From NCBI RefSeq assembly GCF_003790525.1, contig NZ_CP033635.1: a stretch of DNA of 64,000 bases; one strand, 5' to 3'. Below, piece by piece: positions 9,067-60,401 of this stretch; the first letter of the stretch is position 1, and the number at the start of each line of letters is the position of its first letter. Under the pieces are notes generated by a model. That model saw nothing but the letters and a program-made list of their open reading frames with translations, did not search any database and was not told where the DNA came from. A program made the translations under genes and the position numbers. This DNA is from Escherichia coli. GTDB taxonomy: Bacteria > Pseudomonadota > Gammaproteobacteria > Enterobacterales > Enterobacteriaceae.

Positions 9067-9843
9067 ATGTCCGAAACAAAAAATGAACTTGAAGACCTGC
9101 TGGAAAAAGCAGCAACCGAACCGGCGCACCGCCCGGCCTTTTTCCGTACTCTACTGGAATCCACCGTCTGGGTGCCGGGTACGGCGGCGCAGGGCGAGGC
9201 TGTGGTTGAAGATAGCGCGCTTGATTTACAGCACTGGGAAAAAGAAGACGGCACCAGCGTCATTCCTTTTTTTACCTCGTTAGAAGCACTTCAACAGGCG
9301 GTTGAAGACGAACAGGCATTTGTCGTAATGCCCGTTCGCACATTGTTTGAGATGACCCTTGGCGAAACGCTCTTCCTTAATGCCAAACTGCCAACCGGTA
9401 AAGAATTTATGCCGCGTGAAATCAGTTTGTTGATTGGTGAAGAAGGAAATCCGCTGAGCAGCCAGGAAGTACTGGAGGGCGGTGAATCGCTGATATTATC
9501 GGAAGTCGCAGAGCCACCAGCACAAATGATTGATTCTCTCACCACCTTATTTAAAACTATTAAGCCGGTGAAGCGTGCTTTTATTTGTTCAATTAAAGAG
9601 AACGAAGAGGCACAGCCTAATTTACTTATTGGCATTGAAGCCGATGGTGATATCGAAGAAATTATTCAGGCGGCGGGAAGTGTAGCGACCGATACAATAC
9701 CTGGCGATGAACCCATCGATATTTGTCAGGTGAAAAAAGGGGAAAAAGGAATTAGCCACTTTATTACCGAACATATTGTGCCATTCTATGAACGTCGCTG
9801 GGGTGGTTTTTTGCGTGACTTTAAACAGAACCGGATAATCTAA
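9067..9843 (+). CDS. sseB: SseB, enhancer of serine sensitivity
   Basis: 258 aa from MSETKNELEDLLEKAATEP; convergent with sseA. Confidence 0.85.
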   Translation: MSETKNELEDLLEKAATEPAHRPAFFRTLLESTVWVPGTAAQGEAVVEDSALDLQHWEKEDGTSVIPFFTSLEALQQAVEDEQAFVVMPVRTLFEMTLGETLFLNAKLPTGKEFMPREISLLIGEEGNPLSSQEVLEGGESLILSEVAEPPAQMIDSLTTLFKTIKPVKRAFICSIKENEEAQPNLLIGIEADGDIEEIIQAAGSVATDTIPGDEPIDICQVKKGEKGISHFITEHIVPFYERRWGGFLRDFKQNRII

Positions 9844-9945
9844 AATATGCCGCCCCAAAGGGCGGCATTCGGGCTTACCTGCTGTTCTGAAGGTTGTTAA
9901 CCACCAATAAATTGTTACCGGAGAGACTCCGGTTATTATTTACCT

Positions 9946-10325
9946 CGGTTAACAGCGCACCAGAAACAATAAGTACGATACAAAAGCACCGTATCTTCAT
10001 TGTGCGGTCCATGCGAAGACCGCATCACGACAGCACCACTGGCGATATTGCCGCGATAGCAAGCGCTGTGAAACACCTGCATTTACGGCCATGGAACATC
10101 CTTTCCTTAAGCCAGCGCCCGTTTGCGAGACGGCGGAAAGGGCCGGTGTCGATAATACGCTAAATAAACAATGATTACTCTCTTTCGCTTGACAAAAAGA
10201 GAGTTACTGGCGAGTATTGCTTTGCTGTGAAGCACCTGCGTTGCTCATGCAACACAAGCCAATCTGCTGGAAAGGCCGCGAACCAGACCAGCAATAAAAA
10301 ACCGCCAAATTCGGCGGTTTTTTAT
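9946..10325 (+). ncRNA. Candidate RyfA-like sRNA in the sseB-sseA intergenic region (strand and ends uncertain)
   Basis: About 500 bp non-coding gap between convergent genes; promoter-like TTGTTA-16-TATTAT at 9911-9938; strong hairpin plus T-run at 10300-10330; RyfA is known to lie between sseA and sseB in E. coli. Confidence 0.25.
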
Positions 10326-21868: not shown

Positions 21869-22987
21869 ATGCATAACCAGGCTCCAATTCAACGTAGAAA
21901 ATCAACACGTATTTACGTTGGGAATGTGCCGATTGGCGATGGTGCTCCCATCGCCGTACAGTCCATGACCAATACGCGTACGACAGACGTCGAAGCAACG
22001 GTCAATCAAATCAAGGCGCTGGAACGTGTTGGCGCTGATATCGTCCGTGTCTCCGTACCGACGATGGACGCGGCAGAAGCGTTCAAACTCATCAAACAGC
22101 AGGTTAACGTGCCGCTGGTGGCTGACATCCACTTCGACTATCGCATTGCGCTGAAAGTAGCGGAATACGGCGTCGATTGTCTGCGTATTAACCCTGGCAA
22201 TATCGGTAATGAAGAGCGTATTCGCATGGTGGTTGACTGTGCGCGCGATAAAAACATTCCGATCCGTATTGGCGTTAACGCCGGATCGCTGGAAAAAGAT
22301 CTGCAAGAAAAGTATGGCGAACCGACGCCGCAGGCGTTGCTGGAATCTGCCATGCGTCATGTTGATCATCTCGATCGCCTGAACTTCGAACAGTTCAAAG
22401 TCAGCGTGAAAGCGTCAGACGTCTTCCTCGCTGTTGAGTCTTATCGTTTGCTGGCAAAACAGATCGATCAGCCGCTGCATCTGGGGATCACCGAAGCGGG
22501 TGGTGCGCGCAGCGGGGCGGTTAAATCCGCCATTGGTTTAGGTCTGCTGCTGTCTGAAGGCATCGGCGACACGCTGCGCGTATCGCTGGCGGCCGATCCG
22601 GTCGAAGAGATCAAAGTCGGTTTCGATATTTTGAAATCGCTGCGTATCCGTTCGCGCGGGATCAACTTCATCGCCTGCCCGACCTGTTCGCGTCAGGAAT
22701 TTGATGTTATCGGTACGGTTAACGCGCTGGAGCAACGCCTGGAAGATATCATCACTCCGATGGACGTTTCGATTATCGGCTGCGTGGTGAATGGCCCAGG
22801 TGAGGCGCTGGTTTCTACACTCGGCGTCACCGGCGGCAACAAGAAAAGCGGCCTCTATGAAGATGGCGTGCGCAAAGACCGTCTGGACAACAACGATATG
22901 ATCGATCAGCTGGAAGCGCGCATTCGTGCGAAAGCCAGTCAGCTGGACGAAGCGCGTCGAATTGACGTTCAGCAGGTTGAAAAATAA
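21869..22987 (+). CDS. ispG: HMBPP synthase IspG
   Basis: 372-aa [39 protein letters not shown]. Confidence 0.95.
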
Positions 22988-23097
22988 TAACGTGATGGGA
23001 AGCGCCTCGCTTCCCGTGTATGATTGAACCCGCATGGCTCCCGAAACATTGAGGGAAGCGTTGAGGGTTCATTTTTATATTCAGAAAGAGAATAAAC

Positions 23098-42801: not shown

Positions 42802-44379
42802 ATGACGGAAAACATTCATAAGCATAGCATCCTCATTCTGGACTTCGGTTCCCAGTATACTCAACTGGTTGCGCGCCGCGTGCGTGAGCTGGGCGTTTAC
42901 TGCGAACTGTGGGCGTGGGATGTGACAGAAGCACAAATTCGTGACTTCAATCCAAGCGGCATTATTCTTTCCGGCGGCCCGGAAAGCACCACCGAAGAAA
43001 ACAGCCCGCGTGCGCCGCAGTATGTCTTTGAAGCAGGCGTACCGGTATTCGGCGTTTGCTATGGCATGCAGACCATGGCGATGCAGTTGGGTGGTCACGT
43101 TGAAGCCTCTAACGAACGTGAATTTGGCTACGCGCAGGTTGAAGTCGTAAACGACAGCGCACTAGTTCGCGGTATCGAAGATGCGCTGACCGCAGACGGT
43201 AAACCTCTGCTCGATGTCTGGATGAGCCACGGCGATAAAGTTACCGCTATCCCGTCCGACTTCGTCACCGTAGCCAGCACCGAAAGCTGCCCGTTTGCCA
43301 TTATGGCTAACGAAGAAAAACGCTTCTATGGCGTACAGTTCCACCCGGAAGTGACTCACACCCGCCAGGGTATGCGCATGCTGGAGCGTTTTGTGCGTGA
43401 TATCTGCCAGTGTGAAGCCCTGTGGACGCCAGCGAAAATTATCGACGATGCTGTAGCCCGTATCCGCGAGCAGGTAGGCGACGATAAAGTCATCCTCGGC
43501 CTCTCTGGTGGCGTGGATTCCTCCGTGACCGCAATGCTGCTGCACCGCGCTATCGGTAAAAATCTGACTTGCGTATTCGTCGATAACGGCCTGCTGCGTC
43601 TCAACGAAGCAGAGCAGGTTCTGGATATGTTTGGCGATCACTTTGGTCTGAACATTGTTCACGTTCCGGCAGAAGATCGCTTCCTGTCAGCGTTGGCCGG
43701 CGAAAACGATCCGGAAGCAAAACGTAAAATCATCGGGCGCGTTTTCGTTGAAGTATTCGATGAAGAAGCACTGAAACTGGAAGACGTGAAGTGGCTGGCG
43801 CAGGGCACTATCTACCCTGACGTTATTGAATCTGCCGCATCTGCAACCGGTAAAGCACACGTCATCAAATCTCACCACAACGTGGGCGGCCTGCCGAAAG
43901 AGATGAAGATGGGCCTGGTTGAACCGCTGAAAGAGCTGTTCAAAGACGAAGTGCGTAAGATTGGTCTGGAGCTGGGCCTGCCGTACGACATGCTGTACCG
44001 TCACCCGTTCCCGGGACCAGGCCTTGGCGTTCGTGTTCTGGGTGAAGTGAAGAAAGAGTATTGTGACCTGCTGCGCCGTGCTGACGCCATCTTCATTGAA
44101 GAACTGCGTAAAGCGGACCTGTACGACAAAGTCAGCCAGGCGTTCACCGTCTTCCTGCCGGTACGTTCCGTTGGCGTAATGGGCGATGGTCGTAAGTATG
44201 ACTGGGTTGTCTCTCTGCGTGCTGTCGAAACCATCGACTTTATGACCGCACACTGGGCGCATCTGCCGTACGATTTCCTCGGTCGCGTTTCCAACCGCAT
44301 TATCAATGAAGTGAACGGTATTTCCCGCGTGGTGTATGACATCAGCGGCAAGCCGCCAGCTACCATTGAGTGGGAATGA
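42802..44379 (+). CDS. guaA: GMP synthase
   Basis: 525-aa [38 protein letters not shown]. Confidence 0.95.
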
Positions 44380-44425
44380 TTAACAGCTAACTCATAGCAA
44401 CTCATTCCTATTCAGACACTAATTT

Positions 44426-44514: not shown

Positions 44515-44529
44515 TTACCTTAAAGGTAT
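44515..44529. promoter_or_regulatory. Operator-like palindrome TTACCttaaaGGTAt upstream of integrase
   Basis: Member of the recurring TTACC-N5-GGTAA motif family. Confidence 0.4.
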
Positions 44530-47366: not shown

Positions 47367-48248
47367 TTACATAGATGTTTCGTTTAATTCTTCCCGACGA
47401 ACGCTGTAAACGTCGGTGGCTTTTGCCAGCAGTTCGTCATCATCTGAAAGTTTTTGTGCAATGTATTTGTAAGCCTTATCCAGTTCGGAGACAGTGCTGT
47501 AATTCATCGCTGCGCTGGTAAAGGCCATCAGCATTTCTTCTGGCTCACGGCTATCCGCTTTACGCGTTTGCTCATCAGGCTTTTTCACTGATTTAGCGTT
47601 GATCAGACTGTTCATTCCCGCAGCCGTAGTCATTTGCGGAGTAATGTCTCGCTCAACGCGCGGTGCCGTTTCCTGTAATTCGTCAGGGGTGTAAACACCG
47701 AGAAGTACATCAGGAGCGTGCAGGCGAGCCCATCGTTTCGTGCAAAGATATGCAAGTTGCTGGCGCGGATCCTGTTCCCACAATGGAGAGTTACGCACTC
47801 CTGCTTGCGCCATACTGATGGTAAGCTCACGTGGTTCTGCTTCTCCTTTAAGAACTGCTGACACAGTTACCGTCAGATTCGGTGATTTATCTGTTTTGCC
47901 GTTAACATTCGACCAGTCACCGCTCCAGCGATAATTCAGGCGTGTCGCCAGCAGGCTGGAAGAGGATACGACCGCGTTTACCAACTGTGCTTCGTAGCCT
48001 AACGTTCCGTTTACCACATGCGTTTTCTGCGCCACGGCGAAAGGGTTCATTCCCCACTGTGCCGCCTGCATGGTCACCGCCAGGCAATCGGCAGGTTTGC
48101 CTTCAAGATGTTTCGGTACAGTCGCTTTGCTTTGTGACATCAACTCCGCGAAACGCACCAGTTGATTCATACCCTCGGGGCTGAAGATTGCAGCAGCAGT
48201 GCCTACAGTTGCGCCTGGTTGTGATGTGATTGCGATATCATTGCTCAT
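47367..48248 (-). CDS. Single-strand annealing protein (Bet/RecT-like)
   Basis: 293-aa ORF with QAAQWGMNPF segment resembling lambda Bet; directly downstream of exonuclease-like gene. Confidence 0.5.
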   Translation of the reverse strand: MSNDIAITSQPGATVGTAAAIFSPEGMNQLVRFAELMSQSKATVPKHLEGKPADCLAVTMQAAQWGMNPFAVAQKTHVVNGTLGYEAQLVNAVVSSSSLLATRLNYRWSGDWSNVNGKTDKSPNLTVTVSAVLKGEAEPRELTISMAQAGVRNSPLWEQDPRQQLAYLCTKRWARLHAPDVLLGVYTPDELQETAPRVERDITPQMTTAAGMNSLINAKSVKKPDEQTRKADSREPEEMLMAFTSAAMNYSTVSELDKAYKYIAQKLSDDDELLAKATDVYSVRREELNETSM

Positions 48249-49066
48249 ACGTACATATCCTGTTTACGTGCCCAGTCAGGGCGTTTAATAATTTCCACTC
48301 CGCCCCATTCATCGTTGATGCGGCATTCGTGATAGGTATTCAGATCCCGGCGGAACAGAGCGTGCCCGGCATCGACATCCTGCGCATCCAGCTCGAACAC
48401 GCGTACCGGATACCGACCACAATCAATGCTTTCGCTCACGGCAAGAAAGAAAAAACCATGCGGCTGACCAGTAACCATCATTGCGCCTTCGCGGTACATT
48501 GCGTCCTGCACGTGGTAGCGGAATTCCTCGATGTGGCGTGCAAAACGGTCCATATCTGCAACCTTTTTCACGTCGACGATCACGTTGTGCTCGTTCAGCC
48601 ATTTGTCTGGACGAATTCGGCACAACTCCCCCGTCTCTTCATCGTTCCAGTACATTGATGCTTCGCAGTAACCAGGTGCTTCCAGCATCCAGCGTGCCGC
48701 CGGGTGAGCCATTGCGCTATCACGCATCAGCTCCAGTTTCCGCCACTGCTCGGCATCAAGTACCGTAATCCCCATATCCGCCACATCACGAAGAAATTCC
48801 TCTTCGTCAGCTTTACCTTGTTTCGTCCGACGATCGAATTTCGGTGAAACAATGAAGCGTTTGTCGAACTCTCCAGGCTCCAGAAGCAGACAGTGCAATG
48901 CGGTTCCCATATCCAGTGCAGACTTTTTCTCTTCGTCTTCTGGTGCTGCCTGAACCCATTTAAGAAGCGCCGGATTCTTGGCAACCATGTCCAGTTGCGA
49001 CTTACTCACGCCGTCACCGGCGTGGTAGTCTTCGTTGCTGATGTCGAAATAAATTCCCGGTTTCAT
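48245..49066 (-). CDS. Putative PD-(D/E)xK recombination exonuclease
   Basis: 273-aa ORF with D...IVDVKKV motif, overlapping start/stop with annealase gene. Confidence 0.5.
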   Translation of the reverse strand: MKPGIYFDISNEDYHAGDGVSKSQLDMVAKNPALLKWVQAAPEDEEKKSALDMGTALHCLLLEPGEFDKRFIVSPKFDRRTKQGKADEEEFLRDVADMGITVLDAEQWRKLELMRDSAMAHPAARWMLEAPGYCEASMYWNDEETGELCRIRPDKWLNEHNVIVDVKKVADMDRFARHIEEFRYHVQDAMYREGAMMVTGQPHGFFFLAVSESIDCGRYPVRVFELDAQDVDAGHALFRRDLNTYHECRINDEWGGVEIIKRPDWARKQDMYV

Positions 49067-49377
49067 GCCGCGTCCCTCTGCCCATCAAGCTGATCAGCCA
49101 GATCCCAGCGGGCGATAATTGCCATTGCCTCGCGCCGGTAGGCATCCATTAGTTCTTCGAACTCAGGGCTGTCTTTAGCGGCCTCCAGTACTTCCTGGCG
49201 AACGCCTTTAACTGTTACAACGTCGAAAGTTGATGCCAGTTGATGAAGCCGGATACTCTCAATCAGTTCAACTTGTCGGTCATATAGCTGTTCTGACAGA
49301 CGGTAGTCCTTGTCGAATGCCAGCATGATTTTTTGAAGATTTTTCTGCTGATTAACGTTCATTATCAGCCCTCCCAT
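49063..49377 (-). CDS. Hypothetical early protein
   Basis: 104-aa ORF, first gene of leftward operon, overlapping stop with exonuclease gene. Confidence 0.4.
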   Translation of the reverse strand: MGGLIMNVNQQKNLQKIMLAFDKDYRLSEQLYDRQVELIESIRLHQLASTFDVVTVKGVRQEVLEAAKDSPEFEELMDAYRREAMAIIARWDLADQLDGQRDAA

Positions 49378-49526
49378 ATCTCGTTATCGTTGGCCACATC
49401 GCGAGCTTCTTTGCTGACGAAAGCCCACTTAATGCCTTCCTGTAAGGTGCGGAACTTCCAGCTCATGAATCCGCATGCAGTAACGCAGTACCAACCGTTG
49501 ATGATTTTCCACTGCATAACTTGTTA

Positions 49527-49603
49527 CCTCGGTCTGTTACCGTTGAGGTAATAATTATGCGTATATGGTTTGATGTCAATAGATATGAGTTAAAAAAATT
49601 ACC
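49527..49603. promoter_or_regulatory. OL-like operator pair (two perfect TTACC-N5-GGTAA palindromes)
   Basis: TTACCgttgaGGTAA at 49527-49541 and TTACCcgttaGGTAA at 49589-49603, between leftward early operon and repressor gene. Confidence 0.5.
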
Positions 49604-49670
49604 CGTTAGGTAATCGAATAGGCAATAAAAAAGCCGCCATAAGGCGGCTTACTTACTGAAAAATATGGTT

Positions 49671-50255
49671 TTATTGTTTGTTTTTTTCGTTCTGGTTGAT
49701 GACAAATTCAATGTAACTTTCGATCTTTGCTTTCTCGGTTTCGGGTAACAATGCGTAGCGCGAGCGATCATAGTTGATGGTCGCAGGGTCATGCGGATGA
49801 ATCAGTAGTTCATATCCGTGACGCCCGAATGCAGATGCAACATTCTCCAGGGTGGAAATGGAAACGCTGACCTCATTGTTTAACAGGCGGCTTATTGTCA
49901 CCTGGGCGACGCCGGATGCGCGGTGAAGTTTTCCCTGAGTTGAAAGGTCGCGGCTTTCACTCATCCAGCGTTCCAGGTTGTGAGCCGCCAGCTGACCTAT
50001 ATCACTCGGGCCGACAGGCTGAAAACCCTCCTGAGAAAGCGAGCGATCAATATCAAGCCAGTTACGGGGTTTATTGGCGGCAGCTTCAATTTTTCGCGCA
50101 ACCTGGTCGCCGATAACCTTCTTGCCAAGAGCCCAGCGGTTTACCAGATTTGCCTGAGTTCCAAGTTTTTCTGCCATCCGCGTCTGAACACCATTGAATT
50201 CACGGTCGATCAAGTCGTTGAGATTTTGCCTGCGGACGTCCTGGATACTTTTCAT
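49671..50255 (-). CDS. Prophage repressor (two HTH regions)
   Basis: 194-aa ORF divergent from cro-like gene; HTH-like segments QTRMAEKLGTQANLVNRWALGKK and ASGVAQVTISRLLNNE. Confidence 0.55.
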   Translation of the reverse strand: MKSIQDVRRQNLNDLIDREFNGVQTRMAEKLGTQANLVNRWALGKKVIGDQVARKIEAAANKPRNWLDIDRSLSQEGFQPVGPSDIGQLAAHNLERWMSESRDLSTQGKLHRASGVAQVTISRLLNNEVSVSISTLENVASAFGRHGYELLIHPHDPATINYDRSRYALLPETEKAKIESYIEFVINQNEKNKQ

Positions 50256-50310
50256 TTTCTGGAAAATCGCCTCATATATGAATCAGTAGATGATTCAATT
50301 TAAAGCAATA

Positions 50311-50373
50311 TTACCCAACAGGTAAATGCACCTCATGGGTAACTATCCTTGATTTTTGTTACCTTATGGGTGA
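50311..50373. promoter_or_regulatory. OR-like operator cluster between repressor and cro-like genes
   Basis: TTACCcaacaGGTAA (50311-50325), weak gcACCtcatgGGTAA (50328-50342), TTACCttatgGGTgA (50359-50373); promoter-like TTGTTA-17-TATTAT overlaps. Confidence 0.5.
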
Positions 50374-50409
50374 ATATTTATTATCTGAAATAAATATCAG
50401 GCAATAGCT

Positions 50410-50640
50410 ATGAGCGATAACGGACATTTCGATTTCAAAAAGCACTGGCTTGCACTTACTCCGGATGAGCGTGAAGCCTTCGCACAGGAAGCCGGAACGA
50501 CGAGTCACTATATCCAGACTCACTTAACAGGTAAGCGCAAAATGCCAGGTAAAGTATTGATGAATGGGCTTTTTAAAGCCTGTAAAACAAGACAATGGCT
50601 GCGCTCAAAAGCAGAACTGGCATACTTCTTCTACTCATGA
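50410..50640 (+). CDS. Cro-like early regulator
   Basis: 76-aa ORF divergent from repressor; followed by terminator. Confidence 0.45.
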   Translation: MSDNGHFDFKKHWLALTPDEREAFAQEAGTTSHYIQTHLTGKRKMPGKVLMNGLFKACKTRQWLRSKAELAYFFYS

Positions 50641-50662
50641 TATCCAGCTACAACCCTCTGTA

Positions 50663-50684
50663 GACCGCCACCCGGCGGTCTTTT
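50663..50684 (+). terminator. Intrinsic terminator after cro-like gene
   Basis: gaccgcc-accc-ggcggtc followed by tttt. Confidence 0.5.
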
Positions 50685-50695
50685 CATATCTATTC

Positions 50696-50710
50696 GTACC
50701 TCAAAGGTAA
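50696..50710. promoter_or_regulatory. Operator-like palindrome gTACCtcaaaGGTAA
   Basis: Motif family member immediately after the cro terminator. Confidence 0.35.
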
Positions 50711-50788
50711 TAAAAAACCAAATCTGGTTGATCAAATTTTCCAATTGTGCAAAATAGCCAATATCAATAACAAAAAGGTGCGGAAAAA

Positions 50789-51001
50789 TTGAAGATAGTA
50801 ACCAGAATGGAGGCCGCAAAAGCCGGGTTAAATCGCTATTTCACAGGAAAGCGGTGCCGTCACGGCCATCTCTCTGAAAGGTATGTTCTGAACGGAACAT
50901 GTGTTGAATGTGCAATGAATAGCGCCAACCGCCATCGTAATGAATTTGCTTGTGCACTAAAGAGTGCAAGAGGGGAAACCTATGGCAAGCAGCTGGATTA
51001 A
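50789..51001 (+). CDS. Small zinc-ribbon-like protein
   Basis: 70-aa ORF with C-x-H-G-H ... C-x2-C; TTG start in track, true start uncertain. Confidence 0.35.
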   Translation: MKIVTRMEAAKAGLNRYFTGKRCRHGHLSERYVLNGTCVECAMNSANRHRNEFACALKSARGETYGKQLD

Positions 51002-51812
51002 GGTTGAAGTTATCACTCCTGATAAACCTGAAATTTTTCAGATAGCAGAAATTCTGGGTATTGATCCAGATGCTGTTCTTGGAAAGCTGGTTCGTATATG
51101 GGCATGGGCTGACCAGCAAACAATAGACGGTAACGCTGGCAGCGTTACAAAAGGAGTACTTGATAGACTCGCTTTTATTACAGGATTTGCTGACGCCCTC
51201 ATTAGCGTCGGATGGCTTGCTTATCATGACGGCAAACTAATTCTTCCAAACTTTGAGCGACACAATGGAGAATCATCGAAAAAACGTGCACTTACGAATA
51301 GAAGAGTGGCAGAGCATCGAAAACGAGTAACGCAAAAAGTAACGCCAACAGCGTTACAAAAGGAGTTACCAGAGGAAGAGGAAGAGGAAGATATATATAA
51401 AACCCCACACATAGCGCACGTGCGCGAGGGGGCTACGACCAGTGAAGCGAACGGTATGCCGTTGCAGGTGGCTGAACCTGAATTTCTGGATGGCCTGAGT
51501 GAACCCATCGGGAAATTTCCGATGACCGATGACTGGCATCCGTCGCCGGATTTTCGACGGCGTGCTGCGCTGTGGGGAACGGCCCTGCCGGAACCGGAAT
51601 TTACACCTGCTGAACTTGCTGCATTCCGGGATTACTGGATGGCTGAGGGCAAAGTGTTCACGCAGGTTCAGTGGGAACAAAAATTCGCCAGGCACGTAAA
51701 TCATATCAGGGGAAAATCAAAAAACGCCGGGAAAAGCGATGAGCTTGACTGGAATAACACTGACTGGATAGAAGGGGTGTGGGATGAAATCAACTCCAGA
51801 ACTTCTCAATGA
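50982..51812 (+). CDS. Replication initiation protein (O-like)
   Basis: Start MASSWIKVEV after GAGGGG RBS; acidic EEEEEED linker; overlaps start of P-like gene. Confidence 0.45.
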   Translation: MASSWIKVEVITPDKPEIFQIAEILGIDPDAVLGKLVRIWAWADQQTIDGNAGSVTKGVLDRLAFITGFADALISVGWLAYHDGKLILPNFERHNGESSKKRALTNRRVAEHRKRVTQKVTPTALQKELPEEEEEEDIYKTPHIAHVREGATTSEANGMPLQVAEPEFLDGLSEPIGKFPMTDDWHPSPDFRRRAALWGTALPEPEFTPAELAAFRDYWMAEGKVFTQVQWEQKFARHVNHIRGKSKNAGKSDELDWNNTDWIEGVWDEINSRTSQ

Positions 51813-52560
51813 GTACGATCGCTTACGTGAGCATGGTGTTGCTGTGCATGAAGAGCGGCGTGACAGCAATGGCAAAAAGGAGCAGGTCGCTAGAATTTTC
51901 AATGAACTATTTGTCCAGTTACAGGCTGCATTTCCCGCAAGCGTTTCGACCATAAGGGAGCAGAACAAACTTAATGAATTCCGTAAGCAATGGATGCTTG
52001 CGTTTCTGGAGAATGGGATCACAACAATGGAACAGGTTAACGCTGGTATGCGCCACGCCCGCGCCAGTGAGTCTCCGTTCTGGCCGTCGCCAGGGCAATT
52101 TATCAAGTGGTGTAAAGACAGCAAGATGGTTCTTGGCGTCACCATTGACGATGTGATGGCGGAGTTTCACCGGTACAGCAAGGAAAAAAGTTTATATCCT
52201 GGTGGTCCCGAAAGATTCCCGTGGCGGCATCCGGTTATGTACTGGGTCGTATGTGATACCCGCCGTGCAATGTATCAGCGCCAGCTTAGCGAGATTGAAG
52301 TTGAGAAACACGCGCGCAGGCTGCTCGATGATTGGGCGAAAAAGGTGGCTTCCGGGCAGCAGATACCCGATCCGGTGATCAGCATACAGGCAAAGCCAGA
52401 ACCCATGAGTACGCCTCCGGACACAGGGAGAGACGTTTACCACCCGCCAGGGCGAAGTTTCGGGTGCATGCCTAACGCCGCCACCCTTGGGGGAATAACA
52501 CCGGCTCAGTGGCTGATGGAGGAATACAGGCGGGGAAAGGCGGCAGGATTTATCAAGTAA
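51784..52560 (+). CDS. Replication protein P-like (DnaB helicase loader)
   Basis: 258-aa ORF with ENGITTMEQVNAGMRHAR and PSPGQF, matching lambda P as recalled. Confidence 0.75.
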   Translation: MKSTPELLNEYDRLREHGVAVHEERRDSNGKKEQVARIFNELFVQLQAAFPASVSTIREQNKLNEFRKQWMLAFLENGITTMEQVNAGMRHARASESPFWPSPGQFIKWCKDSKMVLGVTIDDVMAEFHRYSKEKSLYPGGPERFPWRHPVMYWVVCDTRRAMYQRQLSEIEVEKHARRLLDDWAKKVASGQQIPDPVISIQAKPEPMSTPPDTGRDVYHPPGRSFGCMPNAATLGGITPAQWLMEEYRRGKAAGFIK

Positions 52561-52597: not shown

Positions 52598-52612
52598 TTA
52601 CCTGTAGGGTAA
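52598..52612. promoter_or_regulatory. Operator-like palindrome TTACCtgtagGGTAA
   Basis: Perfect motif family member. Confidence 0.4.
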
Positions 52613-52659
52613 CAAAATATTCTAAACTCTATTGATTTCGTGTCTTATGTGGTTTTTAA

Positions 52660-52674
52660 TTACCTCAGAGGTAA
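52660..52674. promoter_or_regulatory. Operator-like palindrome TTACCtcagaGGTAA 3 nt upstream of ATG
   Basis: Perfect palindrome overlapping the translation initiation region of the 52678 gene. Confidence 0.4.
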
Positions 52675-53083: not shown

Positions 53084-53626
53084 ATGGAAAGTAATATCAA
53101 AGGGTTAGTTGCCGCCGGGCATGAGATGGCTTCGGAACTGAAAGCTGAATGTGGTGCCGTTGATATGCGTAGTGTGGCAAAGCTGCTCAGCGATTTGGCA
53201 ACGCAACTGGAAGTGCAACTGGTGCGTGCTAATGCGCTGGCCGAAGACCAACAGAGAGCGATTGAGTCAATTAAGCAGGCTGATTCGGCTGTTAAGTTGG
53301 CACACAAGAAGTTTTCGGAGCTGGCAGCGGAGAATGCGGCACTGAAGGCTGCGCACCCTCAACCATTCGGACCTGAGATGATGAAGGCTCTTGATGCGTA
53401 TGAGAAGTATCAGGATGAAGTGCCGGAGACTGGGATGCTCAATGCATTTTTCATCTTGCGCGACAGTATCCGTGTTGACACCCCAGCCACCGACGCTTTC
53501 CTAGCTGAAGTTCGAGCGCAGGGTGTAGATATGGCAGCTTGCGCCCTTGATAACGTAAACCAGTTCAATTACGCAAACATGCTCGATGATTTAGCGCAGA
53601 AGATTCGCAAAGGAGTGCAGTCATGA
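53084..53626 (+). CDS. Hypothetical phage protein
   Basis: 180-aa ORF, helical/coiled-coil composition. Confidence 0.4.
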   Translation: MESNIKGLVAAGHEMASELKAECGAVDMRSVAKLLSDLATQLEVQLVRANALAEDQQRAIESIKQADSAVKLAHKKFSELAAENAALKAAHPQPFGPEMMKALDAYEKYQDEVPETGMLNAFFILRDSIRVDTPATDAFLAEVRAQGVDMAACALDNVNQFNYANMLDDLAQKIRKGVQS

Positions 53627-53808
53627 AAAACCGTAAAGCCAAAATCATCGTTCTTCGCGCTCTGAAAAACTGCTACCCGCGCCAATGGCTGAATGTAAGC
53701 AATCGACGCATGGTTCTCTTCACGCTAGGTGGTGTTAGCCGTGAAGGGCATCAATTCAAAAACAGCGCAGCACAGAATCGCTGGAAGAATCATGCGAGGT
53801 TCCAATGA
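53623..53808 (+). CDS. Small basic protein, paralog 1 (MKNRKAK family)
   Basis: 61-aa ORF starting ATGAAAAACCGTAAAGC, ATGA overlap with upstream stop; ends AAQNRWKNH. Confidence 0.35.
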   Translation: MKNRKAKIIVLRALKNCYPRQWLNVSNRRMVLFTLGGVSREGHQFKNSAAQNRWKNHARFQ

Positions 53809-53914
53809 GCAATATCGACAAGCGGCCTCTACGTGACAAGCTGTCACCGTATGACACAGAAGAGATGCTTGAGGCTATGCGTATTTTTCTGTAAGAACAG
53901 GGAGGTGAGCAAAA

Positions 53915-54232
53915 ATGACGATCACAAAACAACGGGTAGAAGAAATCATATCCCGCATTGAAATGTATGGGCATGGCGCAGGGTATACCGCCGAAGAGGT
54001 TTATGACCTGGCTGTACTGGCGCTGAATTTATCAAATATCGCAAAACTCAAGCGATACGAGCTTGATATGGATGGTTGTGACTCGTTCGGTCAGGATTGT
54101 GGCGCTGACATGACTGAAGATTCTGATGGCGATTATGTCCTGTTTGATGACGTGGTTAAGTTGTTTGAGTTTGATACAACCACTCAGAAGATAGAAAGCC
54201 CAGCAAAGGAGGCAACCAGTGAGCAAGATTGA
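53915..54232 (+). CDS. Hypothetical phage protein
   Basis: 105-aa acidic ORF. Confidence 0.35.
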   Translation: MTITKQRVEEIISRIEMYGHGAGYTAEEVYDLAVLALNLSNIAKLKRYELDMDGCDSFGQDCGADMTEDSDGDYVLFDDVVKLFEFDTTTQKIESPAKEATSEQD

Positions 54233-54773
54233 CTATCAGGCACTGCGTGAAAAGGCAGAGAAAGCAACGTGTGGTGTATGGTCGATCGAATATGGAGAGA
54301 GCCGATTTGATGGTGATGATGCGTTAATTCACCGTGAAGTTGCTGGATATATTCCCATTTGCAGAATTGAAGGAGCGCATCCTGAAAGCGGTTTCGATGA
54401 AGATTTCCAAACTGAACAGCAGGCCAATGCTGAATTCATCGCCGCAGCCAATCCGGCTACTGTGCTGGCGCTTCTGGATGAACGGGAAAGAAACCAGCAA
54501 TACATCAAACGCCGCGACCAGGAGAACGAGGATATTGCGCTAACGGTAGGGAAGCTGCGCGTTGAGCTGGAAGCCGCAGAGAAGCGCATAGCAGAACTGG
54601 AAGCGCGGGAAATACTGCTCCCTGAACGTAGCAGCATGCTTCATCGAACAGATTTTCACGATGATTACCAAACGGTAATGGCATACAAAGTTTCTGAAGT
54701 CATCGATGCAATCCGCGCTACTGGCATTTGCATCAAAGGAGACGCAGGAGAGCAAAACGATGAAAAACCGTAA
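54219..54773 (+). CDS. Ead/Ea22-like protein
   Basis: 184-aa ORF MSKIDYQALREKAEKATCGVWSIEYGE, resembles lambdoid Ea22-like proteins. Confidence 0.5.
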   Translation: MSKIDYQALREKAEKATCGVWSIEYGESRFDGDDALIHREVAGYIPICRIEGAHPESGFDEDFQTEQQANAEFIAAANPATVLALLDERERNQQYIKRRDQENEDIALTVGKLRVELEAAEKRIAELEAREILLPERSSMLHRTDFHDDYQTVMAYKVSEVIDAIRATGICIKGDAGEQNDEKP

Positions 54774-54936
54774 AGCAAAATTACTTCTTTTATCGCGTTC
54801 GACGGGGTACGAGAAGCTACCAATCAGCAATCACAAACGGGCGGTGATCGGCATGTTTGGTAGGGTGGTATTCGCATTTAACTATAAACCCACCGCGTCG
54901 CGGAACAGACGAGAGAAGGGGTACGCAGTGCGATGA
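54760..54936 (+). CDS. Small basic protein, paralog 2 (MKNRKAK family)
   Basis: Starts with the same ATGAAAAACCGTAAAGC inside the 3' end of the Ea22-like gene. Confidence 0.3.
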   Translation: MKNRKAKLLLLSRSTGYEKLPISNHKRAVIGMFGRVVFAFNYKPTASRNRREKGYAVR

Positions 54937-55124
54937 AAAACCGTAAGGCAAAGATGCTGATAGCAAAGCCCGGGCAGCGTATCCGTATCTCAAATCGGCT
55001 TGTTATTTACTATAGATATCTGGGTTTTAGGGGGTGTTCCTCTATTCGTTTTTACGGTGTCTGGCGAAACAGAAGCGCAGCACAAAACCGCTGGAAAAAC
55101 CACTTTCGCACTAAAGGAGAGTGA
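54933..55124 (+). CDS. Small basic protein, paralog 3 (MKNRKAK family)
   Basis: 63-aa ORF, same 5' sequence, ends SAAQNRWKNH like paralog 1. Confidence 0.35.
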   Translation: MKNRKAKMLIAKPGQRIRISNRLVIYYRYLGFRGCSSIRFYGVWRNRSAAQNRWKNHFRTKGE

Positions 55125-55125
55125 T

Positions 55126-55875
55126 ATGACCACTTTCACCGACAAAGAACTGATTAAAGAAATCAAAGAGCGTATCAGCAGCCTGGACGTTCGAGACAAT
55201 ATTGAACGCCGGGCTTATGAAATTGCACTGGCATCGCTGGAAGCAGATCCAGTTGCTTATATTTTCAAACATCCGGCCGGGAAATTATTCTGGGCTTTGA
55301 CGGATGAAAGCAATAAAGAGCAATCGGACGTTATTCCTGTTTATGCCGCCCCTCCAGTGCCAGTAGTACCTGAAGAAAAACCAATGCCTAACCCTCTTAA
55401 AATGTACGCGGTCGATGCTGTTGCCGCTATTGCAGAGGTGAGAGGCTGGAACGCCTGCCGCGCCGCCATGCTTCAGGCCGAACCTGTAAGTAATAGTGAT
55501 GAGTTACCGCTGGACTATCTGCAAGGACACAAAGACGGCCTGGAGTGGGCTGCACAATTGGCAGAAGCCAATCATCCGCAAACAGGTGACTGGTTGTACG
55601 ACGACCCAATCGATCTTGCCAGGGCGATTCGCAAAGGTCCTGATATGCCTACTGTTCAGGCTGGCAACTATCCGGTAACTCCGGATGGTTGGATAAGCTG
55701 TAGTGAGCGAATGCCCGCTCAAGATGATTGGATTTTTATTTATTCAAAGCACGGCGAGTATATGGCAGGACAGGTACAAGGGGAATACGTGGAGTTGAGC
55801 GACGGCACTTTATCGTGGTTAGGGAACGCCTTGTACTGGATGCCTCTACCGGAACCGCCGCAGGAGGTTAATTGA
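55126..55875 (+). CDS. DUF551-family phage protein
   Basis: Start MTTFTDKELIKEIK after GGAG RBS; C-terminal YWMPLPEPP signature. Confidence 0.55.
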   Translation: MTTFTDKELIKEIKERISSLDVRDNIERRAYEIALASLEADPVAYIFKHPAGKLFWALTDESNKEQSDVIPVYAAPPVPVVPEEKPMPNPLKMYAVDAVAAIAEVRGWNACRAAMLQAEPVSNSDELPLDYLQGHKDGLEWAAQLAEANHPQTGDWLYDDPIDLARAIRKGPDMPTVQAGNYPVTPDGWISCSERMPAQDDWIFIYSKHGEYMAGQVQGEYVELSDGTLSWLGNALYWMPLPEPPQEVN

Positions 55876-56159
55876 TGGTCTCCTTCGCGAAATATACGAT
55901 TATTGACTGGATAGCATTCATTCAGGTTTTGCTCATCTGGTTTTATATGGCTTACAGGAGTGGACAGTGGATTGTCAGTGTAGCCTGTAGCAATGGATGG
56001 CGTTGGTGGAACCGAAAGAATAAAAAAGCGCTGGCCTTGGCTTCGTTTTACGAAGCATTCAATCTTAACAGTCTTCAGCCTGGTTCTGTCGTTGTAGTCA
56101 CCACTCAAAGCGGCATGACGATACAAATTCACAAGCCAAAGGAGGAAGGTCGTGGCTAA
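55872..56159 (+). CDS. Hypothetical small membrane protein
   Basis: 95-aa ORF with hydrophobic N-terminal segment. Confidence 0.3.
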   Translation: MMVSFAKYTIIDWIAFIQVLLIWFYMAYRSGQWIVSVACSNGWRWWNRKNKKALALASFYEAFNLNSLQPGSVVVVTTQSGMTIQIHKPKEEGRG

Positions 56160-56433
56160 CCTGCAACTTGCCGTTAAAGGTGAATACTTCGATGCCATGA
56201 TTCGCGGGGAGAAAACGGAAGAGTATCGCCTGTGTAATGACTACTGGAATAAGCGAATTATGTTCCGCGAGTATGACCGCCTGATTATCACAAAGGGATA
56301 TCCGAAGCGCGACGATTCCAGCCGCAGAATTGACGTCCCGTATGACGGATATGAAATCAAGACAATCACACATCCGCACTTCGGCGATAAACCGGTAAAG
56401 GTGTTCGCTATAAAGGTGAATATTGATGGCTAA
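56152..56433 (+). CDS. ASCH-domain-like protein
   Basis: 93-aa ORF MANLQLAVKGEYFDAMIRGEKTEEYR. Confidence 0.4.
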   Translation: MANLQLAVKGEYFDAMIRGEKTEEYRLCNDYWNKRIMFREYDRLIITKGYPKRDDSSRRIDVPYDGYEIKTITHPHFGDKPVKVFAIKVNIDG

Positions 56434-56764
56434 ATCAGCAGCAGAGCGCAAAGCCGCGCAGCGCGCTCGGCAGTCCGCCGCCGGTGAGCGCAAAATTGAA
56501 CTGGTGCTGGATAAGCAGGAGCAGGAAATGCTGGCGCGGAACTGCGCCGCCCGGCGCCCTGGTCACGATCCCTATGAAATGGCCGAGTACATCGCGCTGC
56601 TGATCCGCCAGGATGATGCACGTGTGCGCGGGCGTATAAAATCGATCAGTAGAAAACGTTGCGGTAAGTGCGGCGAGAGAGTTCCAGTTAATTCATGTCC
56701 GTGTAATGGTGACTCGCAATGCTGGGTGACTAAAGGCTGGCATGAAACGAAATTAATAGTGTGA
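56423..56764 (+). CDS. Cys-rich hypothetical protein upstream of terminase
   Basis: 113-aa ORF with basic N-terminus and C-terminal CGKCG...CPCNGDSQC. Confidence 0.4.
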   Translation: MMAKSAAERKAAQRARQSAAGERKIELVLDKQEQEMLARNCAARRPGHDPYEMAEYIALLIRQDDARVRGRIKSISRKRCGKCGERVPVNSCPCNGDSQCWVTKGWHETKLIV

Positions 56765-56882
56765 CATGTCACGAGTAGATTATGCATGATGAATTTGATG
56801 GGTTTTGAATACTGCCGCCAACTATGGCGGCTTTATTTTGCATGGTACTATTACCACAACGGTAACTATTACCACGGTGGTT

Positions 56883-57479
56883 ATGATGCCTGCTGAACCT
56901 AAAACCTATAAACGCAAATCAACGCAATTTAAGCCGCTCACAGCAATGCAGGAGGCTTATTGCCAGTCATACATCAAAACGCCTGAAAACCAGACTCAGG
57001 CAGCGATTAACGCAGGATTCTCCCCAAATACAGCGGCAGTTAAAGCCAGTGTCATGATGCGCGATGAACGCATTCAAAAACGGATTGCCGAGTTGATGGA
57101 GGAGCGCAACAAACGAATGCGCGTCAGTGCTGATTACGTTCTCATGCGCCTGGTGGAGATCGACCAGATGGACGTGATCGATATCCTCAACGACGATGGG
57201 AGCCTTAAACCAATCCGTGAGTGGCCGAAAATCTGGCGCACTACGCTTAGTGGCTTTGATCTGTCATCGACCATCATGAACATGAACGAGGATTCGATAG
57301 AGACAATCCTCAAAAAAATTAAATGGCCTGACAAGGTGAAGAACCTCGAACTGATTGGTAAGCACGTCGACGTTAACGCGTTCAAAGAACGTCTGGATGT
57401 TAATGTGAATGTGACAATTGCTGATCGCATAGCAGCAGCCAGGAAGCGACTCAAAGAACGTCAGGATGGTAATCAGTGA
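56883..57479 (+). CDS. Terminase small subunit
   Basis: Positioned immediately before terL with GTGA stop/start overlap; start inferred at MMPAEPKTYKRK. Confidence 0.5.
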   Translation: MMPAEPKTYKRKSTQFKPLTAMQEAYCQSYIKTPENQTQAAINAGFSPNTAAVKASVMMRDERIQKRIAELMEERNKRMRVSADYVLMRLVEIDQMDVIDILNDDGSLKPIREWPKIWRTTLSGFDLSSTIMNMNEDSIETILKKIKWPDKVKNLELIGKHVDVNAFKERLDVNVNVTIADRIAAARKRLKERQDGNQ

Positions 57480-58950
57480 CAGATACAGCGTTATCTCCTG
57501 AAGAGCAGTTGATCGAGGATATTGCAGGGTTCACTCACGATCCGCTTGGCTATGCCCTCTATGCGTTCCCGTGGGGGAAGAGGGTACTGAACTGGCACAT
57601 GCCACCGGCCCACGTCAGTGGCAGGCTGATGCGTTCCGAGAGATACGTGATCACCTGCAGAATCCAGAGACGCGCTATCAGCCGCTTATGCTGGCACGCG
57701 CTTCTGGTCACGGTATTGGTAAATCCGCATTCATCTCAATGCTGATCAACTGGGGCATGTCCACTTGCGAGGATTGTAAGGTCGTGGTGACCGCCAACAC
57801 CGACAACCAGCTACGAACTAAGACCTGGCCGGAAATTATCAAGTGGTCGAACCTTGCTATCACGAAAGACTGGTTTACCTGTACCGCTACCGCGATGTAC
57901 AGCAATGATCCTGGGCACGACAAGCGGTGGCGAGCTGACGCAATCCCTTGGTCTGAGCACAACACTGAGGCATTCGCCGGACTACACAACGAGCGTAAAC
58001 GCATCATCGTGGTATTTGATGAAGCGTCGAACATTGCGGATCTGGTGTGGGAAGTTGCCGAGGGTGCGCTAACGGACGAAGACACTGAGATTATCTGGGT
58101 GGCGTTCGGAAACCCTACACGTAACACCGGACGTTTCCGCGAATGTTTCCGCAAATATAAACACCGCTGGAAAACTGCGCAGATTGACAGCCGAACGGTG
58201 GAAGGCACTAACAAACAGCAGTTGCAGAAATGGGTTGATGACTACGGGGAAGACAGCGACTTCGTTAAAATCCGTGTGCGCGGCATATTCCCTGATGCAT
58301 CTGAATTGCAGTTTATCCCTACCGGTCTTACTGATGAGGCAATGAAACGGGTGGTGACCGCTGCGCAGGTGGCGCATGCTCCGGTGATAATCGGTGTTGA
58401 CCCGGCATATTCAGGCGTTGATGACGCGGTGATATACCTGCGGCAGGGGCTACACAGTAAGGTGCTGTGGACTGGCAACAAGACTACCGACGATCTGATT
58501 ATGGCGAAGCGTATCGCTGACTTTGAAGACCAGTATCAGGCTGACGCGGTGTTCATCGACTTCGGTTACGGAACCGGTTTGAAGTCAATCGGTGATGGCT
58601 GGGGACGTACATGGCAACTTGTTCCGTTCGGTGGCGCGTCTACTGACCCGCAGATGCTCAACAAGCGTGGGGAGATGTTCAACTCATGCAAGACATGGCT
58701 GAGGCTCGGCGGCATGCTGGATGACCAGGAAACTGCAGACGACCTGTCGGCGGCAGAGTACAAAGTTCGTGTGGACGGTAAAATCGTTATCGAACCGAAG
58801 GAAGATATCAAAGAGCGGCTTGGGCGTTCGCCTGGTAAAGGCGATGCGCTACTGCTGACGTTTGCTTTCCCGGTGTCAAAGCGCCTGCGACTTCCCGGGC
58901 AGCAGAACCAGCAAGGCAAGGCGCTTACCGAGTACGATCCATATGCTTAG
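57476..58950 (+). CDS. Terminase large subunit, apparently frameshifted in a G5 run (57573-57577)
   Basis: Coupled GTG start 57476 gives 32 codons in one frame; Walker-A (GHGIGKS) body continues in another frame from 57571; adding one G restores a single ORF. Confidence 0.7.
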
Positions 58951-59765
58951 TCTTTATTTTTATCCTCGAAACCTGATAATCCAGATAGAACACCAAAGTT
59001 ATTAAAAACGTTTGGCTTACCAGATTTTAATCCGGATAAGTTGTGTTGCTCCAAAAAGTTACTAATTGTTTGGCCGTTGCCAAGTGCAAGGCTTTTTATT
59101 TGAGATTTTTCAGGGTATTTGAGTTTGTATTCGTCGAAATCATTTTGGAGGGTCTTATATGCCTCATTCATTCTTCCAAGAGTTTCCGATATCTCTTTTA
59201 ATGAATGATTTAGAGCTGCTAACTGAGCACTGGCGGATCTCAATTCGTCATCTTTAGCTTTCAACTCGGCAGTCAATTCACCCATACTATTCTTTGATCG
59301 AATAATCTCTTCTTTCATCTCTTGGATGTCTTTTTCCGCGCCAGTCTTAACTTTGTCGTATGTAACATCTTTTTTAGCCAATAACCTCTGCAGTCTTGTT
59401 TCACGCTGGATTTTTCTTGCCTTCAGGTGATTTTCGATTGAGTCATTATTATCAAGAGGCTTTGCTTGCCATACGTTAATGATATTGTTTACCCATGGTA
59501 ATAGGCAGCAGATAGCAATTACAGATAAGCATGGATAAAACATAACAGTTTTCCATGTGCTGTTATCTGAGATATATGAAATTTTATCTATTATGTTTGA
59601 TTTGCTAAAAAATAGATAAAGAATTGATTTCCAGTTGAAGGCGCACCAGGACATAACAAAAGCACCAAGCACAGGGTTTTTGGCTCGATTCACGGCAGTA
59701 TTGGCAGTAGATAAAAACAGCTCTTTGAACGATTCAAACATGCTAATTACCTTGAAGTTTTTCAT
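58947..59765 (-). CDS. AT-rich moron: membrane protein with coiled-coil C-terminal region
   Basis: Start inferred at MKNFKVISMF; two hydrophobic segments then Lys/Glu-rich heptad-like region; opposite strand to structural genes. Confidence 0.55.
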   Translation of the reverse strand: MKNFKVISMFESFKELFLSTANTAVNRAKNPVLGAFVMSWCAFNWKSILYLFFSKSNIIDKISYISDNSTWKTVMFYPCLSVIAICCLLPWVNNIINVWQAKPLDNNDSIENHLKARKIQRETRLQRLLAKKDVTYDKVKTGAEKDIQEMKEEIIRSKNSMGELTAELKAKDDELRSASAQLAALNHSLKEISETLGRMNEAYKTLQNDFDEYKLKYPEKSQIKSLALGNGQTISNFLEQHNLSGLKSGKPNVFNNFGVLSGLSGFEDKNKD

Positions 59766-59769
59766 GATT

Positions 59770-59784
59770 ATACCTTTAAGGTAA
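59770..59784. promoter_or_regulatory. Operator-like palindrome next to moron start, overlapping a TATAAT element
   Basis: On moron strand reads TTACCttaaaGGTATAATcATG. Confidence 0.4.
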
Positions 59785-59801
59785 TTTGCGGTCATCAAGC
59801 A

Positions 59802-59825: not shown

Positions 59826-59987
59826 AACTGGAAGCAATGAGTTATGCCTTCCGTGGCTGTACGGGTTTACAGCATGAAGTCATCGCAATGGCGTCCTGCT
59901 GTAAAAAGGGCGGTGATAGTCCTTCAAGGGAAACCATCACCGCCAAGCCCCTGGAACTTCTGGCATCACGGTCCTTAGGCGTGATTC

Positions 59988-60064
59988 TGGCGCGGCATGC
60001 AGGATTCGAACCTGCGACCAACCGCTTAGAAGGCGGTTGCTCTGTCCAACTGAGCTAATGCCAC
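59988..60064 (-). tRNA. tRNA-Arg (anticodon UCU), phage-encoded
   Basis: 77-nt cloverleaf folded by hand: acceptor GTGGCAT/ATGCCGC, anticodon loop CTTCTAA, T-loop GCAGG-TTCGAAT-CCTGC, encoded CCA. Confidence 0.85.
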
Positions 60065-60386: not shown

Positions 60387-60401
60387 TTACCTGAAAGGTA
60401 A
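60387..60401. promoter_or_regulatory. Operator-like palindrome TTACCtgaaaGGTAA upstream of head genes
   Basis: Perfect motif family member, followed by TAATAAT. Confidence 0.4.

Follow-up and report, generated by a model that had tools for sequence, protein, structure and literature searches.

The closest described counterpart of the locus analysed here is the Rep-Ant switch of phage SPC32H, the mechanism of which was reportedly set out for this homologue in 2013 and 2016. Kim and Ryu in 2013, and Kim et al. in 2016, are said to have found that the antirepressor Ant switches SPC32H Rep off by binding to it, and that cleavage plays no part (summarised in PMC9638917 and PMC7380047). According to the later of these studies, the N-terminal helix-turn-helix (HTH) domain alone binds DNA, and the C-terminal HTH-like domain provides for oligomerisation and Ant binding; the earlier one reportedly describes Ant as structurally distinct from other LexA-controlled antirepressors.

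Several published results bear directly on this family. SPC32H Rep binds DNA as a tetramer, and Ant, also tetrameric, binds Rep and takes it apart into dimers, behaviour that is known only for SPC32H (PMC9638917). Ant is made once LexA has been inactivated in the SOS response (PMC7380047, after Kim & Ryu 2013). Overexpression of the repressor of phage vB_EcoP_ZX5 led to zero free phage and lowered lysis-gene transcription by 99.97-99.99% (PMC9782041), and a microcin that damages DNA induced prophages of the phiV10 species 21- to 47-fold (bioRxiv 10.64898/2026.05.26.727859). The same logic, namely, a non-cleavable repressor and a small binder derepressed through LexA, is known from Tum of phage 186, GfoA/GfhA of the Gifsy phages and AntC of N15 (PMC7380047), to which we detected no sequence relationship; these systems are analogous, not of the same family.

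Against this background, we analysed a stretch of 64,000 nucleotides of Escherichia coli DNA, hereafter the window, whose immunity region we read, with a probability of about 85%, as the lysis-lysogeny Rep/Ant switch of a phiV10-type Uetakevirus prophage, with a non-cleavable Rep and a LexA-linked ant gene. The gene layout, the statistics and conservation of the sites, the protein domains, the identity with phiV10 Rep, the homology with the Rep and Ant proteins of SPC32H, and the LexA box that precedes ant in relatives were computed in this study, and the function of the identical repressor, the Rep-Ant mechanism and the SOS-type inducibility of phiV10-species prophages are taken from the literature.

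The prophage and its repressor

From position 44365 to its end (64000), the window is collinear with Escherichia phage phiV10, mostly at 95-98% identity, and in blastn comparisons this collinearity extends from int through the portal and protease genes. The phiV10 homology begins at an attL core, ATTGAGTGGGAATGATT (44365..44381, + strand), which is the left-hand boundary of the prophage, located at the 3' end of guaA. This core matches exactly the attP/attB core of vB_EcoP_ZX5, which has been reported at the 3' end of guaA (PMC9782041). Upstream of 44365 lies host chromosome, where Rfam searches found an iscRS element, ryfA and sroE. The element is thus a phiV10-type Uetakevirus, that is, an epsilon15-like podovirus, inserted at guaA. 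The window ends at about phiV10 coordinate 6876, so that attR, the genes for the tail fibre and for lysis, and the greater part of the virion genes fall beyond it. Among the other assembly loci compared, L004-L010 keep this gene order; the closest, L005, is 99.8% identical, and its 10-kb flank ends before ant.

Accessory regions distinguish this prophage from phiV10, namely, 50733-52030, 53241-56151 and the gene at 58949-59801. The immunity region itself, which is 95-98% identical to that of phiV10 by blastn, shows no difference from phiV10-type phages: over 1.4 kb its DNA is 97-98.6% identical to that of phiV10, vB_EcoP_ZX5, O157 typing phages 9 and 10, TL-2011b and phiv142-3, all of which have the same terminators and palindromes and the same att core at guaA.

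The ORF list bears out the arrangement described in the first-pass annotation, in which a 194-aa repressor gene, rep (49671..50255, - strand), is divergent from a 76-aa cro-like gene (50410..50640, + strand). At 100% identity, Rep matches both phiV10 gp40 and the repressor encoded by the guaA prophage in E. coli LS45, and it has the same sequence as ORF21 of vB_EcoP_ZX5. The finding is to this extent already known, with the identical protein annotated in phiV10, where the GenBank record notes 'two helix-turn-helix motifs' for gp40, and the same-sequence ZX5 repressor tested in 2022. It has little import beyond annotation, where the prophage can be entered as a phiV10-type Uetakevirus that has a Rep/Ant switch and is presumably inducible by the SOS response.

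The claim that the repressor contains two HTH-like segments, placed here at residues ~1-75 (N-terminal HTH) and ~90-190 (C-terminal, HTH-like), agrees with separate Pfam and PHROG matches to its two halves. First, Pfam gave HTH_3 at residues 106-147 (E=4.9e-5), and weaker matches at the N-terminal end, namely, YdaS_toxin at 21-61 (E=0.0047) and HTH_3 at 24-67 (E=0.14). Second, PHROG repressor families gave one set of matches to residues 1-76 (E~1e-10 to 1e-11) and another to residues 92-191. Third, an AlphaFold2 model built on a shallow alignment of five sequences placed five helices at residues 86-151 with pLDDT 74-89, in a model whose overall mean pLDDT is 56, and below 50 for the N-terminal domain. 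In view of the domain roles reported for SPC32H Rep, the 'two-HTH' label would describe the fold of the protein rather than two DNA-reading heads.

Comparison with solved structures points to a single family. SPC32H Rep (PDB 5D50_A) is homologous over the full length, is likewise built of two domains, and is encoded at the corresponding place in its genome, with a cro-like gene diverging from it: phmmer aligned residues 1-190 of Rep with residues 2-197 of SPC32H Rep (E=4e-42), at 42% identity by blastp, and the C-terminal half matched PDB 5D4Z (E=4e-20). When a profile of the Rep family was searched against solved structures, 5D50_A was recovered at E=1.4e-111, and 5D50 and 5D4Z were the sole significant relatives. 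The inter-domain linker is six residues shorter than in SPC32H Rep. By analogy, the oligomeric state and the Ant binding of the Rep variant encoded here would follow those of SPC32H.

In its layout the region is also similar to the lambda CI/LexA type, in which a repressor lies between OL and OR clusters, with a divergent cro and a three-site OR. However, the S24 domain, the Ser-Lys dyad and the Ala-Gly site that characterise the lambda CI/LexA class have no counterpart in Rep, whose C-terminal domain is HTH-like where that of CI/LexA is a protease. The earlier reading that a LexA-type cleavage region is lacking was upheld: the HMM search against Pfam gave no Peptidase_S24 match in Rep, cysteine is absent from the 194 residues, as are AG and CG dipeptides, and a search of them for a Ser/Lys protease module was negative. 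These observations also bear on whether Rep could be inactivated by proteolysis, either through cryptic self-cleavage stimulated by RecA or by a host protease, with no antirepressor involved. The DNA-damage response of phiV10-species prophages, if taken alone, would be compatible with cleavage too. However, given a protein devoid of an S24 domain, of an Ala-Gly or Cys-Gly site and of a Ser/Lys module, and a homologue, SPC32H Rep, that is reported to be uncleaved and was crystallised with Ant (5D50; PMC9638917), we find proteolytic inactivation hardly credible.

In phage BP9 the protein is annotated as an antitoxin of the HigA/VapI type. We rejected this assignment, as the match to the NCBIfam HigA model TIGR02607 reaches 18.7 bits where the cut-off is 47.7, and as the neighbours of rep are cro and early phage genes, not a toxin gene.

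Palindromes and candidate promoters of the immunity region

The three palindromes announced between rep and cro, and the two on the other side of rep, were all located, at 50311, 50328 (a degenerate copy) and 50359, and at 49537 and 49599, respectively. Their consensus is TTACC-N5-GGTAA, 15 bp in length. Perfect copies number seven in the 64-kb window, against 0.03 expected, every one of them in the prophage, and palindromes with at most one mismatch number 17, against 1.0 expected. In an unbiased count of all palindromes of the form 5-N5-5, TTACC was the top half-site of the prophage (seven copies; next best, two); in the host part of the window it is outside the five commonest half-sites, none of which exceeds two copies. 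TTACC also stands out in the genomes of four related phages, its 7-11 copies (a range that includes the prophage) comparing with two or fewer for any other half-site.

On the leftward side of rep, OL1 (TTACCGTTGAGGTAA, 49537..49551) and OL2 (TTACCCGTTAGGTAA, 49599..49613) are perfect palindromes 62 bp apart. Between them lies the candidate PL promoter (49551..49579, - strand), with a -35 hexamer TTGACA, a 17-nt spacer and a -10 hexamer AATTAT, which makes 10 of 12 matches to consensus. OL1 abuts the candidate -10 and covers the start region, and OL2 is upstream of the -35. The half-sites of OL1 and OL2 show no change in five genomes, in which the -35 hexamer is also kept, and the pairing at 62-63 bp is retained in phiV10, epsilon15, Tyrion and BUCT711. 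The first gene of this leftward early operon (49365..49517, - strand) encodes a 50-aa homologue of phiV10p39 (phrog_898, E=1.9e-38). Transcription of rep would end, between OL2 and the gene, at an intrinsic terminator (49631..49650, - strand) formed by an 8-pair stem followed by a T-run, which is annotated at the same place in phiV10.

On the rightward side, the OR site nearest to rep (50311..50325) is perfect, conserved in five genomes, and overlaps a possible -10 hexamer of rep. The middle site (50328..50342) is the degenerate GCACC-N5-GGTAA, with two mismatches, and the same alignment column holds a perfect TTACC site in epsilon15, SPC32H and BUCT711. The site nearest to cro (50359..50373; TTACC-N5-GGTGA, one mismatch) falls within the candidate PR promoter region (50350..50384, + strand), next to an invariant block, TTGATTTTT; this region offers TTGATT or TTGTTA as -35 and GAATAT or TATTAT as -10. 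The assignment of PL, PR and the rep promoter is inferred from such hexamers. The two rep-proximal OR sites overlap the place where the rep promoter must lie, which suggests that rep may be autoregulated.

The cro-like protein is 100% identical to phiV10 gp41 and 76-84% identical across the genus. It belongs to PHROG phrog_35, 'transcriptional repressor' (E=5.6e-13); no Pfam family was matched, and the regulator role is backed by PHROG 35 only. The gene is followed by an intrinsic terminator (50662..50681, + strand), for which phiV10 too has an annotated counterpart in the same position.

When the rep-cro and rep-PL intervals of five Uetakevirus genomes were aligned, the half-sites proved invariant, set in spacers and flanks that vary. 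The TTACC half-site is the same in epsilon15, SPC32H, Tyrion and the Klebsiella phage BUCT711. A protein segment follows the same pattern: NLVNRW, residues 36-41 of Rep, is invariant across five aligned repressors and is taken to be the recognition helix, a presumption that fits the invariant half-site. From these patterns we infer that Rep is probably the protein that reads the TTACC-N5-GGTAA palindromes, some of which may be shared with, or belong to, Cro or a different regulator.

The switch thus combines full-length homology to SPC32H Rep, a separate N-terminal HTH and C-terminal helical domain, the absence of an autocleavage module from Rep, and the operator half-sites of SPC32H. Judged by all the defining features that can be tested in sequence, it is a member of the SPC32H/epsilon15-type Rep-Ant family.

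The antirepressor and the proposed release of repression

The first-pass annotation had proposed that induction may depend on an antirepressor rather than on RecA-mediated autocleavage. This proposal is supported by the homology of Rep with SPC32H Rep, and by the presence of Ant in relatives with an identical Rep. In the 64-kb window, tblastn found no homologue of Ant or of a Bro-N protein; by synteny with phiV10, the ant locus is expected ~13.7 kb past the window end, between the virion and tail-fibre genes. Phages that share the Rep of this prophage have an Ant about 88% identical to that of SPC32H, as exemplified by phiV10 gp24 (5D50_E, E=2.9e-46), and the same LexA box; the Ant of the LS45 prophage differs from that of phiV10 at 2 of 85 residues. 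Moreover, Ant is present at 96% identity or more in 15 of the 16 phage records with the same immunity region. The prophage under study presumably carries an intact ant as well.

Upstream of ant, a near-consensus LexA box, TACTGTATnnnnATACAGT, is found ~18 nt before the ATG in phiV10, LS45, epsilon15, Tyrion and SPC32H, and in these same genomes a further TTACC-N5-GGTAA site is found ~40 bp upstream of the box. Within the window, the sole copy of CTGT-N8-ACAG (59857-59872) was considered as a LexA box and rejected, since 0.73 copies are expected by chance, and since it has a GC-rich centre and adjoins a tRNA gene.

The following sequence of events is proposed. Rep would be expressed from its own promoter, on a transcript that stops at its own terminator. 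Its N-terminal HTH would read the 15-bp palindromes, and its C-terminal HTH-like domain would build tetramers from dimers. Bound in this way, Rep would use the pair of sites spaced at 62 bp to block leftward PL, and the three sites between rep and cro to block rightward transcription from the cro promoter, probably with autoregulation of rep; it very likely acts also at the copies of the site that precede other transcription units. Upon DNA damage, the inactivation of host LexA would derepress the small phage gene ant, whose product would bind the C-terminal domains of Rep, break the DNA-binding tetramer and so release the lytic promoters.

A different candidate for the main antirepressor, acting instead of or besides small Ant, is the Bro-N protein encoded beside ant, as was proposed for ORF4 of ZX5. 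Overexpression of ORF4 lowered the prophage count ~1000-fold and repressor transcription by 75% (PMC9782041). The C-terminal domain of the Bro-N proteins of LS45 and Tyrion is 37-44% identical to nearly the whole of Ant (E=1e-15 to 4e-20), and because of this Ant-like domain Bro-N could engage Rep as Ant does. However, the ORF4 experiment relied on massive overexpression from a GST-vector construct, the Bro-N protein of phiV10 is truncated inside the Ant-like domain, and no Bro-N gene occurs at the ant locus of either epsilon15 or SPC32H, whereas the small ant gene with its LexA box is present in phiV10, LS45, epsilon15, Tyrion and SPC32H alike. A leading role for Bro-N is therefore unlikely in our view, and we retain small Ant as the main antirepressor.

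Copies of the palindrome across the phage genome

The motif also occurs beyond the coordinates covered by the first-pass annotation. First, a copy with one mismatch, TTACC-N5-GGTAT (44515..44529), lies upstream of int, and this variant recurs at the homologous position in phiV10 (26870), epsilon15 (26882) and Tyrion (28568). Second, GTACC-N5-GGTAA (50696..50710) lies between the cro terminator and the replication genes, and recurs in phiV10 (33112) and Tyrion (35365). Third, two perfect sites, the second of which begins at 52660, form a second promoter cassette (52598..52674, + strand) around TTGATT-17-TTTAAT, directly upstream of a DUF1064 gene. Fourth, two adjoining operator-like sites, at 56851 and 56869 and thus 18 bp apart (56851..56883, + strand), occupy the space between a terminator (56814-56831) and terS. 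Fifth, ATACC-N5-GGTAA (59770..59784) falls within a promoter of near-consensus sequence, that of an accessory gene encoding 272 aa. Sixth, a perfect site (60387..60401) is upstream of the gp3/portal block of head genes.

The second cassette reproduces the layout of PL, namely, site, 19 bp, -35, 17 bp, -10 and site, with the same centre-to-centre distance of 62 bp, and 47 of 77 bases are identical between the two. The pairing is kept in phiV10, epsilon15, Tyrion and BUCT711, and such a spacing could allow a tetramer, through two DNA-binding units, to grip both sites at once.

Many of these positions have counterparts in epsilon15, whose repressor, gp38, is 42% identical to Rep. There, sites of the form ATTACC-N5-GGTAAT are found at homologous places, namely, the leftward-operon side, where there are three sites against two here, ahead of terS, ahead of gp3, in the gap between ant and the tail-fibre gene, and in the nin-like region. 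The epsilon15 GenBank record annotates repressor sites at 12-27, homologous to the sites before terS; at 2931-2947, homologous to the site at 60387; and at one member of a pair of the 52598-52674 type. As a putative operator, TTACC-N5-GGTAA thus marks further transcription units across the phage genome, as is already annotated in epsilon15.

The palindromes, at least those outside the immunity region, might instead be read by the cro-like protein or by a conserved 113-aa regulator (56423-56764; phrog_536), as part of a circuit for lytic activation or timing. The sites precede terminase, head, tail-fibre and lysis units; the cro-like protein (76-84%) and the 113-aa regulator are conserved across the genus, as is the motif; and, judged by eye, the surroundings of 60387 and the rep promoter have no good -35 hexamer, a deficiency typical of activator-dependent late promoters. 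However, the same motif makes up classical operator arrays on both sides of rep, and the curators of epsilon15 ascribed all sites to the repressor. Cro and repressor normally share operators, such that a view with Cro as an additional reader is partly no rival at all. We consider an activation or timing circuit of this kind quite improbable, and continue to regard Rep as the presumed reader of the palindromes.

It is tempting to speculate further, on the assumption that Rep acts at all these places. A single tetrameric repressor might silence every early and late transcription unit directly, through ~12 dispersed palindromes, with PL and the promoter at 52598-52674 clamped or looped by the pairs spaced at 62 bp; the genus might moreover recognise one operator sequence throughout and have antirepressors that cross-react between its members, among them the additional Ant domain of the Bro-N fusions. 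We hold this extended model tentatively, at a little short of even odds. The C-terminal domain of Rep diverges to ~40% identity, while the half-site, the NLVNRW segment and Ant stay nearly invariant among members from Escherichia, Salmonella, Enterobacter and Klebsiella, and it is because the half-site, the presumed recognition helix and Ant are nearly invariant that the genus may share operator specificity and antirepressors. Among the relatives compared for covariation between dispersed and immunity-region sites, namely, epsilon15, SPC32H, Tyrion and BUCT711, the half-site did not vary. The genome-wide set of operators with its fixed 62-bp pairs, together with the Bro-N-Ant fusion, provides modest but testable leads.

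Finally, some published gene calls in this group of phages look wrong, namely, the start of terS, whose true position is likely the ATG at 56884, and phiV10p04, which is called over a tRNA.

Bro-N proteins next to ant and conservation of Ant across the genus

Three members of the group encode a Bro-N domain protein adjoining ant, namely the Escherichia coli LS45 prophage (L010, 44781-45491), phage Tyrion (L003, 20417-21121) and phiV10 (L001, 19646-20230). The C-terminal domain of these proteins aligns with the whole of Ant, the small LexA-controlled antirepressor, at 37-44% identity (E=1e-15 to 4e-20), and the phiV10 copy breaks off inside this Ant-like domain. Judged by sequence similarity, the Bro-N proteins next to ant are Bro-N-Ant fusions, and as such they represent a potential second antirepressor. 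This architecture may also explain the 'anti-repressor' effect credited to ORF4 of phage vB_EcoP_ZX5 (PMC9782041), a Bro-N protein, on overexpression.

Conservation was assessed by comparing phiV10 (L001), Tyrion (L003) and genomes L002, L011 and L012 with the window. Comparing E. coli with Salmonella members, Ant shows 84-88% identity, versus only about 40% for the C-terminal domain of the repressor Rep, the presumed Ant target. The operator half-site, TTACC, is identical among Escherichia, Salmonella, Enterobacter and Klebsiella members. With Ant and the half-site conserved and the C-terminal domain of Rep divergent, members of the genus might cross-induce one another or share immunity.

Start codon of terS

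In phiV10, terS is annotated from a TTG codon equivalent to position 56805 of the window. With this start, both an intrinsic terminator (56814-56831) and a pair of operator-like sites would fall within the coding sequence. The ATG at 56884 agrees both with the annotation of epsilon15, where terS is placed 3' of the repressor site, and with a 197-aa gene call in L007, a prophage of the same gene order. This ATG is the more likely start.

A tRNA and an accessory gene between terL and the head genes

In this interval of the prophage, the minus strand carries a tRNA-Arg gene located between terL and the head-gene block at 59988-60064 (ARAGORN and Rfam, 69 bits) whose TCT anticodon reads the rare AGA codon. 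The phiV10 record has no tRNA at the matching position; instead, phiV10p04, a 'hypothetical protein', falls on this stretch on the opposite strand. The phiV10p04 coding sequence is probably a mis-annotation, and the same tRNA is present in the RefSeq annotation of the LS45 prophage.

Between terL and this tRNA, phiV10p03 is replaced in the window by a 272-aa accessory gene (58950-59765, minus strand), matching phrog_4780, of unknown function. Since the PHROG alignment begins at residue 9, the second methionine may be the true start. In the index of the assembly collection, 1764 blocks contain the exact protein. The gene's predicted near-consensus promoter, ATGACC-17-TATAAT (59795-59767, minus strand), is overlapped by an operator-like site with one mismatch.

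The sole CTGT-N8-ACAG of the window, CTGTACGGGTTTACAG at 59857-59872, is probably not a LexA box, because its occurrence is at chance level (0.73 expected) and its centre is GC-rich.

Other prophage genes and the host chromosome

RecT (293 aa) and a PD-(D/E)XK/DUF3799-type exonuclease (273 aa) are encoded by separate ORFs on the minus strand (47367-49066), whereas RecE-RecT is annotated as one fused coding sequence in phiV10, to which similarity is interrupted at 47774-47971 in this region. The first gene past the cro terminator and the operator-like site at 50696 (50789-51001, plus strand) encodes 70 aa that include a CxxxxH...CxxC pattern and match phrog_1081, a family of unknown function. 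In the sequence upstream of the insertion at guaA, Rfam matches to the iscRS stability element (2477-2586), ryfA (9842-10146) and sroE (22987-23078), all host non-coding RNAs, confirm an E. coli/Shigella-type chromosome.
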